Positions 9,148 through 14,102 of a stretch of 26,746 bases of DNA are shown piece by piece. The position numbers and the translations under genes were made by a program. This DNA is from Fidelibacterota bacterium. GTDB lineage: Bacteria > Fidelibacterota > UBA2242. Within the stretch, counting starts at the first letter, position 1, and each line of letters starts with the position of its first letter. Below the pieces are notes generated by a model, which was not told the DNA's origin, made no database searches, and saw only the letters and a program-made list of their open reading frames with translations. Location: contig JAFGXZ010000279.1 in the NCBI GenBank assembly GCA_016936335.1, forward strand, positions 1 through 26,746, in the 5' to 3' direction.

Positions 9148-9375
9148 TTATTTTCTTCCTCTTGCCATCTTTGCACGAGAAACATCACCATTCTTATCGA
9201 TGAAATACAGGTAACCGGCTTCTCTTTTTACGCCACATTTGTTAACGACTTCAGCGCCGCCGCCTTTTTCACCGCCACGAGCCATTTTTGAACGGGCGAC
9301 ATTACCGTTTTTGTCAAGATAATAGAGGTATCCTTTTTCCTTCTTAACGCCACATGTTGCTACTTTTTCTGCCAT
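9148..9375 (-). CDS. 75-aa basic protein made of two tandem ~33-aa repeats, function unknown
   Basis: The true start is probably ATG 9375 (strong SD AAGGAGG 8 nt upstream) rather than the ORF-track start at 9453, which sits in the -35 box. It has its own promoter and terminator. Confidence 0.9.
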   Translation of the reverse strand: MAEKVATCGVKKEKGYLYYLDKNGNVARSKMARGGEKGGGAEVVNKCGVKREAGYLYFIDKNGDVSRAKMARGRK

Positions 9376-9424
9376 AATAAATTCCTCCTTATTTGGTTGA
9401 TTACTTTTTTTACAAGTTGACCCT

Positions 9425-9453
9425 ATGTTACACGACTGAAAATTAAATGTCAA
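9425..9453 (-). promoter_or_regulatory. Near-consensus sigma70 promoter for the 75-aa protein
   Basis: Minus strand TTGACA (9453-9448), 17 nt, TAACAT (9430-9425). Confidence 0.75.
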
Positions 9454-10113: not shown

Positions 10114-11310
10114 CTATATCAACTTGAATTTTATTGTAAAAGTGGTTCCCTGCCCGGCAACACTTTTAACTGTTATTTCGCCCTCGTGATTTTCGACGGC
10201 TTTTTTACAGATCATCAAACCAAGCCCGGTGCCCTGTTTGCCGGCCCAATGTGTATAATCCGGGCGCCAGATTTTTTCAATTTTGTCTTCAGGGATACCG
10301 ACACCAGTGTCGGAGATCTCGACAATTGCATATCCATTCTCACGATAGACTTTCGCTGTCAGATTGCCTTTACCATCCATTGCCTTGAATGCATTTTCCA
10401 CGAGGTTGACAAACACTCTGATCAGATCCTCTTCGCTGGCGCTGATATTCAGCGCTTCACTGGAATATTCTTCAATCAGTTTGACATCGGGGTTTGCAAC
10501 CAGTTGCGAGTCTGTAAACAGGTGGATCGCTTCTTTGACAAGAGCGTTCAGATCGACAGTTTTTTTATGGCTTTTATCAATATCAATAGCCTGACCCAGA
10601 TGTTTCAGCTTTTCCCCCAACTCTTTGAAAAATCCCATCAAGGTAATGATTCCGTTTCCTTTTTCAATACCTTCTTCGGCAATTTTTAATACCCGGTCCC
10701 GGCACTCTTGCATAGTATCGGTACTGTTTTGATTCTGAATAGTATCAAAACAGTGTTCGACTTCATTCTTGAAACTTTCGATTTTACGCTGCAGGGTCTG
10801 AAGCCGCAACATTAGCGAAGCATAATAGCTGCCGGACATATCATGCCCGACGCTTTTCACAATTAAGCGGCTTTCTTCAATTGCCCGGCGGCGTTCTTTT
10901 GCCAGCTTTTCGTTTTCAATCCGCTCTTTTTGCCAGGCATATCCTTTTTCAATACGTTCCAGGAACAGATCCGGGTATTCCACCACGGCGTGTTTTTGGA
11001 TAAAATCCCGGGCGCCGAGGCGCAGGGAATCCACGGCGTTTTCGATTGTAATTTCGCCAGTCAGCACAATCACATAGTTCCGCTGAACCAGATGCTGTTT
11101 TTCAAGTTCTGCCAGAAAATCAAGTCCGGACATATTCGGCATTCGAATATCCAATAGAACGACTTTGAACTGTTTTTCCCGGAGAAATGCCAACCCGGCT
11201 TCAGGGTCGGTATTATAAATGATAGACCAGCCATTATCCTCCAGGGTTTCCTGGATGCTTTTACAAAAGGGTTCACTGTCATCGATCAAAAAAATATCTT
11301 TGTAAAACAT
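10114..11310 (-). CDS. Hybrid histidine kinase (N-terminal REC plus DHp plus HATPase_c), no sensor domain
   Basis: REC: FLIDD, LLDIRMPNMSG, VLTG, IQK. H-box VGHDMSG (His at 10843-10845); N-box VNLVENAFKAM; G1 SDTGVGI; G2 GTGLGL; HEGEI...GQGTTF. Confidence 0.92.
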   Translation of the reverse strand: MFYKDIFLIDDSEPFCKSIQETLEDNGWSIIYNTDPEAGLAFLREKQFKVVLLDIRMPNMSGLDFLAELEKQHLVQRNYVIVLTGEITIENAVDSLRLGARDFIQKHAVVEYPDLFLERIEKGYAWQKERIENEKLAKERRRAIEESRLIVKSVGHDMSGSYYASLMLRLQTLQRKIESFKNEVEHCFDTIQNQNSTDTMQECRDRVLKIAEEGIEKGNGIITLMGFFKELGEKLKHLGQAIDIDKSHKKTVDLNALVKEAIHLFTDSQLVANPDVKLIEEYSSEALNISASEEDLIRVFVNLVENAFKAMDGKGNLTAKVYRENGYAIVEISDTGVGIPEDKIEKIWRPDYTHWAGKQGTGLGLMICKKAVENHEGEITVKSVAGQGTTFTIKFKLI

Positions 11311-11313
11311 AAC

Positions 11314-13128
11314 TTAATTTCCTATTGGTATTTCCAGCGTCAAGCGCAAATTTGAAGCGTTTTCGTGAAGGGTTATCGTGCCGCCATAATCGTTACCAAC
11401 CAGTTCCCGGACTACTTCCAGGGAAAACTGGTAAGGGCTGTAACTTTTGCCGTCACCAAACAGCTCATTCATGGATTTTTTATGAATTTCAACACCCGCT
11501 ACATTATCGGAGCCGGCGATATTGGTAACAAGCATTTTTTTGTCATTTACCTGGGTTTCGATCCACAGTATTGAACCGTAATGTTCAAAACGCGAGATGA
11601 TTAATGAAATCAGCGTTACCAGAACTTCGGTTATTTCATTGGGGTCGACAACCAGCTGGGGAATGTTTGGCTCTTCACTTTTGTTACGCTGAATGACAAT
11701 TTTATAGGAAAGCAAATCATTCGTCAGGTATAAAAGTGCCTCGTCCAGTAGTTCCTGCCAGGTGCGTTTGACATGGATGAATCCGGCCTTAGTGGAAAAT
11801 TCCTGCAGTACCCTAACTTCATTGGCGACATTTTTCAGGTTGCTCAGAATCTGTTCAAATCTCTCAACGCTGGCATCAAGAGACTCGGTTTTACCCTTTT
11901 TAATTCTTTTCAGGTAATTGCCAATGCTCAGTTGGGCTTCCGTTAAAGGATTGACGACATCGTTGGGGATTCGCATGGCCAGGGTGCCCAGGGCGGTCAG
12001 GCGCTGGTTTTTCATTGTGGAAACCGCAGAATACTTCATTGTATCAAGGTATTGTACGTTTTCGATGGCAACGGAAATCATATCGACCATAATCTGAAGA
12101 TACTGCTCATCATCTTCGGTAAAAAACTTATCCCTTTCGGTACCCGGAAGCTTATTGTAAAGTTTAATAGCTCCCTGTGTTTCATTCTTGATGTTGATCG
12201 GCATTCCCAAAAAGGTCAGACGATCACCGAATTTTAAATGTTCTTTGATGGCTTTCCGGTATTTTCCTTTGTATTCCGGCAGGGTCAAGACATTCCGGGA
12301 GCGAATGGTACGGTTCTCTTTTACAATAGTTCCGGTCAGTCCTTCGCCGACCTTATGTTCGGCAACGTTTATCAAATCTTTGGGAATCCCATATCCCCCT
12401 TTAAGAACAAGTGTATCTTTATCGGTTTTTTTGCGAAGGTAAATTTCACAGGTTTCCGAACCGATAGTTTTGGCTGTGTTTTCCGCAACGAATTCCAACA
12501 GGTCGCTTAATTCGAAGAATGACAAGACCTGGGTGCCGACTTTCATTAACAGTTCGAGATATTCAGCTTTCCGGCGTTCCCGTCTTAAATATTCTGAATT
12601 ATCAATTGCCATCGCTACATAACGGGCTATCAGCGATAAGATTTCAAGATCGGAGCTTGTAAAATTTTTATCATCGGAAGCTGTCCGGATCAAACCGATA
12701 AAGCGCTCCTGGTAGCTGAGCAGCGGAACGGCCATGAAAGATTTGGCTTTTTGGTGGTCGGATTCAGTAAACTTGCCAATCCAACGCAGGTTCTCGCCCA
12801 GCTTGCTAAGATCGGCGTTGGATTTTTTGTTCAAATCGCGAATCAGAAGTGGTTTCTGGTTATCAAATACCCAACCGGTTAACCCTTCATTCCGCTTGTA
12901 GATAACTTCGCCATTCGTCGGGGTTGACAGTCCGCTGGTTTTGACCATGCGAACCACATCATCTTCTTCATCATACAGAAAGATAGAACAGCCTTTCCAT
13001 TTGAAAATCTGGGGAATTAAATCAGCACTTTTTTCGATGATACCATCCAGTGACCGTTCCCGAAAGATTGAAATTACTTTCAGAACCTGATCGATAGTCA
13101 AGGCGCTGATGTCTTTTTTTCCGCTCAT
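11314..13128 (-). CDS. Tandem GAF-GAF protein with a degenerate (pseudo) histidine kinase module
   Basis: Two GAF domains (CSIFLYD...EGLTGWV...FMAVPL; CEIYL...EGLTGTI...FLGMPI). The H-box reads LGTLAMRIPNDVVNPL, with His replaced by Asn. N-box and G2-box residues are absent; YGGTI is retained. Confidence 0.85.
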   Translation of the reverse strand: MSGKKDISALTIDQVLKVISIFRERSLDGIIEKSADLIPQIFKWKGCSIFLYDEEDDVVRMVKTSGLSTPTNGEVIYKRNEGLTGWVFDNQKPLLIRDLNKKSNADLSKLGENLRWIGKFTESDHQKAKSFMAVPLLSYQERFIGLIRTASDDKNFTSSDLEILSLIARYVAMAIDNSEYLRRERRKAEYLELLMKVGTQVLSFFELSDLLEFVAENTAKTIGSETCEIYLRKKTDKDTLVLKGGYGIPKDLINVAEHKVGEGLTGTIVKENRTIRSRNVLTLPEYKGKYRKAIKEHLKFGDRLTFLGMPINIKNETQGAIKLYNKLPGTERDKFFTEDDEQYLQIMVDMISVAIENVQYLDTMKYSAVSTMKNQRLTALGTLAMRIPNDVVNPLTEAQLSIGNYLKRIKKGKTESLDASVERFEQILSNLKNVANEVRVLQEFSTKAGFIHVKRTWQELLDEALLYLTNDLLSYKIVIQRNKSEEPNIPQLVVDPNEITEVLVTLISLIISRFEHYGSILWIETQVNDKKMLVTNIAGSDNVAGVEIHKKSMNELFGDGKSYSPYQFSLEVVRELVGNDYGGTITLHENASNLRLTLEIPIGN

Positions 13129-14102
13129 GACGATAATATCCGATAGATTTTCAATAGTTCGGAGTCCAGCGGTTTTTTCTTTTCCCAGGTTTCCAGCAAG
13201 GGTGTATAAGTGACATGATTATTGGACCAGCCCACCATAATATCGGTTTTTCTCTCTAAAAGTGCCTGGACGGCATGGTAACCCAGACGACTGGCCAGCA
13301 GTCGATCGGTGGCTGTCGGACTGCCACCCCGCTGGGTGTGGCCCAAAACGCAGACATGACAGTCGACATTAAAATTCTTTTTCAATTTGAAAGCGATTTC
13401 ATTAGCCGAGCCAAGTTTATGTCCCTCGGCAACAACCAACAGGCTGCTTGTTTTTCCGGCCTTTGACCAGGTCTTGATCATTTCGCCGAGGTGTTCGAGG
13501 CTCGTTTCGGATTCGGGAACCAGGATTTCCTCGGCTCCGCCGCAGATACCGACTTCAAGAGCAATAAAACCGGCACGCCGCCCCATGACTTCAACCAGGA
13601 AAATCCGGTCGTGGGACGCAGCGGTGTCCCGGATTTTGTCAATGGAATCCAGGGCTGTGTGAACGGCGGTGTCATAGCCGATAGTTAGATCTGTACCGAA
13701 AATATCATTGTCAATGGTGCCGGGAATACCGATCACGTTGAATTTATGTTCTTCATACAAGGCATGGGCGCCGTGAAAGCTTCCGTCTCCACCAATCACA
13801 ACCAGACCGTCGATGTCCCATTCTTTGAGAACATCGGCGCCACGTTTACGCCCGGCTTTATGCAGGAAAGCCTCACTGCGGGAAGTTTTTAAAAAAGTGC
13901 CACCTTTTTGAATAATATTGCTGACAGAACGACGGGACATAGGCATTACTTCCCCTTCGATCAGGCCTTCATAACCACCGTAGATGCCAAATACATTAAT
14001 GCCTTGATCAATTGCCGTACGGACCACAGCCCGGATAGCAGCGTTCATACCGGGAGCATCACCCCCGCTTGTCAATAATGCGAGTCGTTTTATTGTATAC
14101 AT
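13125..14102 (-). CDS. pfkA: ATP-dependent 6-phosphofructokinase
   Basis: LLTSGGDAPGMNAAIR, GGDGS, PGTIDND (Gly at both ATP-specificity positions), EVMGR, LGHTQRGG. The stop overlaps the next gene's ATG by 4 nt. Confidence 0.97.
   Translation of the reverse strand: MYTIKRLALLTSGGDAPGMNAAIRAVVRTAIDQGINVFGIYGGYEGLIEGEVMPMSRRSVSNIIQKGGTFLKTSRSEAFLHKAGRKRGADVLKEWDIDGLVVIGGDGSFHGAHALYEEHKFNVIGIPGTIDNDIFGTDLTIGYDTAVHTALDSIDKIRDTAASHDRIFLVEVMGRRAGFIALEVGICGGAEEILVPESETSLEHLGEMIKTWSKAGKTSSLLVVAEGHKLGSANEIAFKLKKNFNVDCHVCVLGHTQRGGSPTATDRLLASRLGYHAVQALLERKTDIMVGWSNNHVTYTPLLETWEKKKPLDSELLKIYRILSS

Follow-up and report, generated by a model that had tools for sequence, protein, structure and literature searches.

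A conserved tandem-GAF pseudo-histidine kinase encoded beside a sensor-less receiver-kinase in Fidelibacterota is a candidate receiver phosphatase

Only a few pseudo-histidine kinases are known, each studied singly: DivL, RocA, PsmA and RedE-like proteins. Here we describe P0001, a 604-amino-acid (aa) GAF-GAF pseudo-histidine kinase encoded at 11314-13128 in a 26,746-nucleotide stretch of DNA from a Fidelibacterota bacterium (GCA_016936335.1, contig JAFGXZ010000279.1). This whole stretch is the window below; its numbering is used throughout, and all window features described lie on the minus strand. The assignment rests on the open reading frame (ORF) and its translation, two Pfam GAF domains and orthologues. 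The gene is followed by those of a receiver (REC)-histidine kinase, P0002, and a REC-helical protein, P0004.

The RedCDEF "four-component" system of Myxococcus xanthus contains RedE, a histidine kinase-like protein that does not autophosphorylate, dephosphorylates RedF~P and is encoded in one operon with its partners (PMC2755868). Like RedE, the phosphatase of a single-domain receiver, P0001 is a kinase-like protein predicted to be unable to autophosphorylate, and it is co-operonic with a true kinase and receiver proteins. However, RedD phosphorylates RedE, which has retained its His, whereas P0001 has Asn at this place and carries two GAF sensor domains. As far as tested, P0001 and the Red proteins are not related in sequence. 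DivL of Caulobacter crescentus (PDB 4q20) binds a single-domain receiver in the phosphorylated state and exerts control over CckA (PMC4211667). P0001 shares with DivL a retained fold of DHp (dimerization plus histidine phosphotransfer) and CA (catalytic ATP-binding) domains, a replaced phospho-accepting His and conservation, and DivL is a Foldseek match of the P0001 model. DivL differs in its PAS sensors and in the Tyr that takes the place of the His, and it is not known to be a phosphatase; in P0001, Asn stands there, the [DE]-x-x-N motif is intact and the Mg-ATP site is apparently dead. To our knowledge, the divL gene is not located next to the gene of its partner kinase CckA.

Two engineered kinases provide a further comparison. 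NRII-H139N and CrdS-H371A are kinase-dead and phosphatase-competent, with an essential Asn at position +4 from the His (PMC3510030; bioRxiv 10.1101/122606). Their H-box (A-H-E-I-K/R-N-P-L) is of the same type as in the true-kinase relatives of P0001, and NRII-H139N carries the same His-to-Asn substitution as P0001 itself. These two proteins are engineered and have a working ATP domain, whereas P0001 is natural and ancient and has also lost the ATP site. Similar to P0001, the phosphotransferases Spo0B, ChpT and PhyT have a DHp four-helix bundle and a CA-like domain that does not use ATP, and receivers dock on their DHp (PMC3433190, PMC5898713). PhyT is kinase-like and also restrains its regulator (PMC5898713). 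All three need a His, but P0001 has none. With no DHp His, P0001 is predicted to fail as a phosphotransferase of the Spo0B/ChpT/PhyT/RedE kind, and only the Anaerolineae branch of its family, described below, could work in this way.

Translation of P0001 gave R-I-P-N-D-V-V-N-P-L at the place of the H-box. A first-pass annotation of the window, made from the letters alone, had read this stretch in the same way, with the phospho-acceptor His replaced by Asn389 (codon AAC, 11962-11964) and with D390 (+1), N393 (+4; 11950-11952) and Pro394 (+5) kept. D390 and N393 form the E/D-x-x-T/N motif of HisKA phosphatases (PMC3510030), in which +4 is the phosphatase position. Directly before the His place stands Pro388 (11965-11967). 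We aligned P0001 with true GAF-kinases (H-box A-H-E-I-R-N-P-L) and observed Asn389 on the His column and Leu on the column of the Mg-binding Asn of the N box. The GxGLGL of the G2 box was gone, and the Asp of the G1 box survived (remnant at 11494-11511). This alignment upholds the earlier view that the N box (remnant EVLVTLISL, 11602-11628) and the G2 box (remnant YQFSL within P-Y-Q-F-S-L, 11419-11433) are lost. The Mg-binding Asn was found in none of 57 relatives, compared to 13/13 true kinases.

Even at E <= 10, Pfam reported two GAF domains only in P0001 and recognized neither a DHp nor a CA in its C-terminus. An AlphaFold2 (AF2) model of the last 250 residues (predicted local distance difference test, pLDDT, 79) showed a two-helix hairpin followed by an alpha/beta domain. 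The DHp-like hairpin spans aa 358-448 (11785-12057; helices 2-56 and 63-93 of the modelled fragment), and the degenerate CA-like domain spans aa 449-604 (11317-11784). Foldseek matched the model to HK853, LvrB, DivL, ZraS, RetS and KinB (E 1e-12 to 1e-9; HK853 about 1e-12). The single P0001 sequence matched ThkA and ZraS over DHp and CA at E about 2e-3; the family profile, which contains true kinases, matched ZraS at 1e-34. These data show that the C-terminal 250 residues of P0001 are a kinase-shaped DHp/CA module. As judged from its residues, P0001 would not be a functional HisKA-type kinase, being without the His, the Mg-ATP Asn of the N box and the G2 box. Because it has neither a phospho-acceptor His nor an Mg-ATP site, it is predicted neither to autophosphorylate nor to relay phosphate. 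P0001 is a pseudo-histidine kinase by sequence definition, with the kinase fold kept, the catalytic residues lost and purifying selection acting on it. Annotations such as "GAF domain-containing protein" conceal a signalling component that Pfam domain models miss.

To place P0001 in a family, we searched for relatives among 5.8 billion proteins. The His-less branch comprised 57 sequence clusters, down to about 31% identity. Full-length relatives were named Marinimicrobia/Fidelibacterota and Cloacimonetes, and one cluster member was named Acidobacteriota. The branch reads P-N-[DE]-x-x-N-[PS]-L. Pro at -1 was invariant (57/57), and the His place held Asn in 54 clusters, Ser in 2 and Gly in 1. 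Asp or Glu occupied +1 in 54/57, Asn +4 in 56/57, Pro +5 in 43/57 and Leu +6 in 56/57; the G1 Asp was kept in 53/57. The Asn state held to about 40% identity, and a non-His residue to about 31%. The most conserved block of the C-terminal half was the H-box helix (aa 375-400; 11929-12006), with the pattern Q-R-L-T-A-L-G-T-L-A-x-R-I-P-N-[DE]-x-x-N-P-L-T-x-A-Q-L.

The ratio of nonsynonymous to synonymous substitution rates (dN/dS; Nei-Gojobori, 10 pairs) was 0.02-0.09 in each of GAF1, GAF2, the DHp and the pseudo-CA. Within 10 residues on either side of the H-box, dN was 0 in 7/10 pairs, with dS of 0.3-1.5 where estimable. The reading frame was intact in all relatives. Because the His-to-Asn change with a retained [DE]-x-x-N-[PS] motif is fixed over the 57 clusters and dN/dS is low, the His loss is not recent decay, and P0001 is under strong purifying selection. 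The first-pass annotation had left room for orthologues that mostly retain His; none of the 57 does. At E <= 1e-30, a search with the C-terminal module profile against 1.84 billion representatives returned 15 clusters only; the scores beyond these fell to a background of generic kinases near 1e-20. The P0001 family is small and sharply bounded.

Outside the 57 His-less clusters, Pro before the His place also occurred in P0133 and in three His-bearing Anaerolineae loci, and it was absent from the true kinases compared. P0133, a divergent relative, carries Asp where the His would be and Thr at +4. Two divergent His-less members, P0037 and P0062, share Lys at +1. In one of them Asn at the His place is combined with Gly at +4, and in the other Ser at the His place with Asn at +4. 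Each was reported from a 12,994-bp contig, so the two could be tandem paralogues.

When the remoter, His-bearing branch was used to scan GTDB species genomes, about 44 Anaerolineae/Chloroflexota loci (L046-L089) came up. The GAF protein of these loci reads [RLP]-H-E-x-x-N-P-L, with His in 38/38, and is already without the N-box Asn and the G2 box, i.e. it has a dead CA. The first-pass annotation had missed these relatives, as well as the third cassette gene, P0004. A quick tree recovered the dead-CA family as monophyletic (support 99) and placed P0133 beside the His-bearing proteins, though at the end of a long branch. Because the Anaerolineae proteins keep His on a dead CA and the dead-CA family is monophyletic in this tree, loss of the ATP site probably preceded that of the His, and the Anaerolineae relatives probably represent an earlier state of the family. 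P-H-E, which stands in three Anaerolineae loci, could be an intermediate on the way to P-N-E. Like RedE and PhyT, the Anaerolineae protein could also be phosphorylated from a receiver, and the logic of RedE is closer to these His-bearing relatives than to P0001.

The N-terminal part of P0001 carries its sensors. GAF domain 1 covers aa 25-177 (12598-13056; Pfam GAF_2, E 2.9e-26), and GAF domain 2 covers aa 195-357 (12058-12546; a second Pfam GAF stretch and profile alignment). The tandem GAF profile aligned across both GAF domains of PDE5, PDE2 and CyaB2. GAF2 contains an NK...F-x3-DE motif (aa 325-341; 12106-12156), and this motif is kept in both the His-less and the His-bearing branches. We take such an "NKFDE" signature to be a mark of cyclic-nucleotide-type GAF domains. 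Because GAF2 has this type of motif, cAMP and cGMP are candidate ligands of the P0001 tandem GAF.

We also examined the neighbouring kinase. P0002 (10114-11310; 398 aa; ORF, Pfam and AF2) consists of a REC domain (10975-11310), a long DHp (10585-10974; AF2) and a CA domain (10117-10563; Pfam HATPase_c, E 2.4e-24). Its H-box, V-G-H-D-M-S-G-S-Y-Y (10822-10851; His156 at 10843-10845), was invariant in 16 Marinimicrobia orthologues. G-H-D-x-x-G was found in 52/52 orthologues from both phyla, with His, Asp (+1) and Gly (+4) invariant and Ser or Thr at +5 in 50/52. H156, N302, N306, D334-x-G-x-G and G-x-G-x-G were likewise invariant (52/52), as were all residues for phosphorylation of the REC domain. 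The intact His, N, G1 and G2 boxes, which the first-pass annotation had also recognized next to the H-D-M-S-G-S stretch, indicate that P0002 is a functional histidine kinase as far as its sequence can tell. Pfam found no sensor domain in P0002.

The DHp of P0002 matched Pfam HisKA in 0/45 orthologues, and HisKA_3 weakly and below threshold in 3/45. With no Pfam HisKA match and no Thr or Asn at +4, it does not appear to belong to the HisKA family and may be an unclassified DHp type. The AF2 model (pLDDT 83) showed a long hairpin with a variable tip. The distance from the active site to the hairpin turn was 37 residues in P0002 (from His156), compared to 21 in P0001 (AF2 models). The P0002 hairpin exceeds the usual length by about 16 residues, and its tip at aa 183-205 (10696-10764) is rich in indels. 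These results qualify the earlier suggestion that P0002 is kinase-only. The missing Thr or Asn at +4 (Gly in 52/52) speaks for it, but the HisKA +4 rule may not hold for this DHp type, a caveat that a recent survey raises for other DHp families (bioRxiv 10.64898/2026.02.27.708494), and the conserved hydroxyl at +5 might take over the +4 role in dephosphorylation.

The third gene of the cassette, P0004 (9504-10100; 198 aa), encodes a REC domain with a short TPR-like helical domain, as assigned by Pfam and its kept cassette position. Its receiver residues D-D-D-T-K were kept in 47/47 orthologues; both receivers of the cassette, P0004 and the REC domain of P0002, retain all phosphorylation residues. 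The gene order GAF-pseudokinase, REC-kinase, REC-helical protein was observed in 16/16 wider Marinimicrobia loci fetched, and the same three genes were present in every Anaerolineae locus with enough flank. Among 201 genomes of the phylum, the pseudokinase module was found in 28 and the REC-kinase in 29, with both genes present and adjacent in the same 28/28 genomes. The single genome with the REC-kinase and without the pseudokinase module is 82% complete. Two loci showed split genes. The REC-kinase of one Marinimicrobia genome (G070, L040:5784-6993) is two ORFs, as is the GAF gene of one Anaerolineales metagenome-assembled genome (L083:6970-8936); each could be a frameshift or an assembly error. 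Three residues before the conserved Lys of P0004, the usual aromatic switch position, Tyr or Phe was found in 30/30 Anaerolineae (loci L046-L089) and Ile or Val in 17/17 Marinimicrobia. This change runs parallel to the His-to-Asn change in the GAF protein; with two clades compared, it may be coincidence.

In the window, four minus-strand genes are tightly packed: pfk, P0001, P0002 and P0004. The 6-phosphofructokinase gene pfk (13125-14102; ORF, Pfam) has a stop codon that overlaps the P0001 start (13125-13128), and P0002 starts 3 nt past the P0001 stop codon. Within this order, pfk lies ahead of the cassette in most loci and is absent upstream in two (L033, L034). In the neighbourhoods compared outside this order (families f8 and f17 and the Anaerolineae loci), pfk did not adjoin the cassette. 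We rejected a functional link to pfk as a general feature, since its adjacency is confined to this order. Downstream of the cassette, a small ORF (9148-9453) encodes a 75-aa product that shows 91-93% identity and the same position in family f1 loci, where a gene for a large CPBP/CAAX-protease-like membrane protein comes next.

We tentatively favour the reading that P0001 docks receivers under the control of its GAF domains and is most likely a dedicated phosphatase of REC~P, probably the signal-controlled "off" arm of a three-protein switch. P0001 would be the sole sensor-bearing part, with P0002 as the sensor-less kinase and P0004 as the REC-helical response regulator. The P0001 module would still dock a receiver domain on its H-box helix, where Asn393, aided by Pro394, would position the water that hydrolyses the receiver acyl-phosphate. 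Phosphoryl groups would be supplied by P0002, and ligand bound by the tandem GAF would set the phosphatase activity of P0001. The output through P0004 would reflect the kinase flux minus GAF-gated dephosphorylation.

The best-kept surface of P0001 is the helix that in HisKA kinases docks and dephosphorylates receivers. N(+4) and D/E(+1) are held more tightly than +2, +3 and +5; this pattern suits a role like that of an active site better than one in binding alone, but is no proof of it. The first-pass annotation had relied on phosphatase activity that depends on N(+4) and can be independent of the His, and work on CrdS bears this out. CrdS is an NtrB-type kinase with the H-box L-A-H-E-I-K-N-P-L, and its H371A variant retains most phosphatase activity (PMC3510030). 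CrdA~P has a half-life of 0.7 min with wild-type CrdS, 2.6 min with H371A and 53.5 min with no enzyme (PMC3510030). N375A abolishes phosphatase activity (47.6 min), P376A strongly reduces it, and the acidic +1 residue is needed for kinase activity only (PMC3510030). NRII-H139N is in use as a phosphatase-only enzyme (bioRxiv 10.1101/122606).

Several observations weigh against a phosphatase. The helix would be equally conserved if it bound receivers and catalysed nothing. In the P0001 family, D/E(+1) is conserved though dispensable for the phosphatase activity of CrdS (PMC3510030). The need for His varies by kinase, and PleC H610A loses phosphatase activity, as cited in PMC3510030. The invariant Pro at -1 (57/57) might distort helix 1. 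The retained G1 Asp (53/57) may still allow nucleotide binding by P0001. The substrate could be either receiver, P0004 or the REC domain of P0002.

A non-catalytic sensor of the DivL type is possible, although we consider it less probable than a phosphatase. The pseudo-DHp would bind a receiver, phosphorylated or not, or the REC-kinase, and would hydrolyse nothing. The GAF signal could then pass to P0002 allosterically, receiver phosphorylation could be reported back to P0002, or P0004 could be sequestered, as PhyT does with its regulator (PMC5898713). P0001 shares with DivL the kept kinase fold, the lost His and strong selection (for DivL, PMC4211667). The tolerance of Asn, Ser, Gly or Asp at the His place, the strict co-occurrence of the P0001 and P0002 genes and the absence of a sensor domain from P0002 are all consistent with such a role. 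However, N(+4) in 56/57 and D/E(+1) in 54/57 are tighter not only than +2, +3 and +5 but also than the rest of the C-terminal half.

We consider it improbable that P0001 forms a DHp heterodimer with P0002, as RetS does with GacS, through which the GAF protein would switch the real kinase on or off. The first-pass annotation had proposed such pairing, and it agrees with the adjacent genes (3-nt gap), their strict co-occurrence and the presence of RetS among the structural matches of P0001. However, below the active site the two hairpins are unequal by about 16 residues in the AF2 models, with a variable tip in P0002, which speaks against a canonical mixed four-helix bundle. Moreover, the P0001 H-box is NtrB/HisKA-like, whereas Pfam assigns the P0002 DHp to none of its DHp families. 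Were P0001 a kinase that had decayed recently, on its way to becoming a pseudogene and with a functionless C-terminal half, this would explain why Pfam found neither HisKA nor HATPase_c in it, but such decay is ruled out by dN/dS in the DHp and pseudo-CA and by the depth of conservation, together with the intact frames and the monophyletic, sharply bounded family.

Pseudo-histidine kinases as a kind are already known. In the literature searched, we found no description of the P0001 family, its cassette or the series of His-bearing and His-less forms. Its three genes form a compact module of soluble proteins, found in uncultured Marinimicrobia and Anaerolineae and probably in further phyla, and natural variants exist with and without the His. 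The cassette lends itself to asking whether a protein with the shape of a kinase can serve as a dedicated phosphatase gated by a ligand, and to questions on the role of [DE]-x-x-N without His and on the evolutionary rewiring of phosphorelays. Direct testability with three small soluble proteins is its main attraction.

Our preferred reading of P0001 as a GAF-gated phosphatase could be taken further, to a proposal that we regard as doubtful: that the opposing activities of a bifunctional kinase are permanently split over two co-operonic proteins, with the signal acting only via regulated dephosphorylation. All sensory input, through the tandem GAF, would then lie on a His-less, ATP-blind phosphatase arm, and the kinase arm would be sensor-less. 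If this is true, the family would preserve a path from a true GAF-kinase via a His-bearing protein with a dead CA (Anaerolineae), a stage within a possible His-Asp-His-Asp relay, to a His-less phosphatase in Marinimicrobia and relatives.

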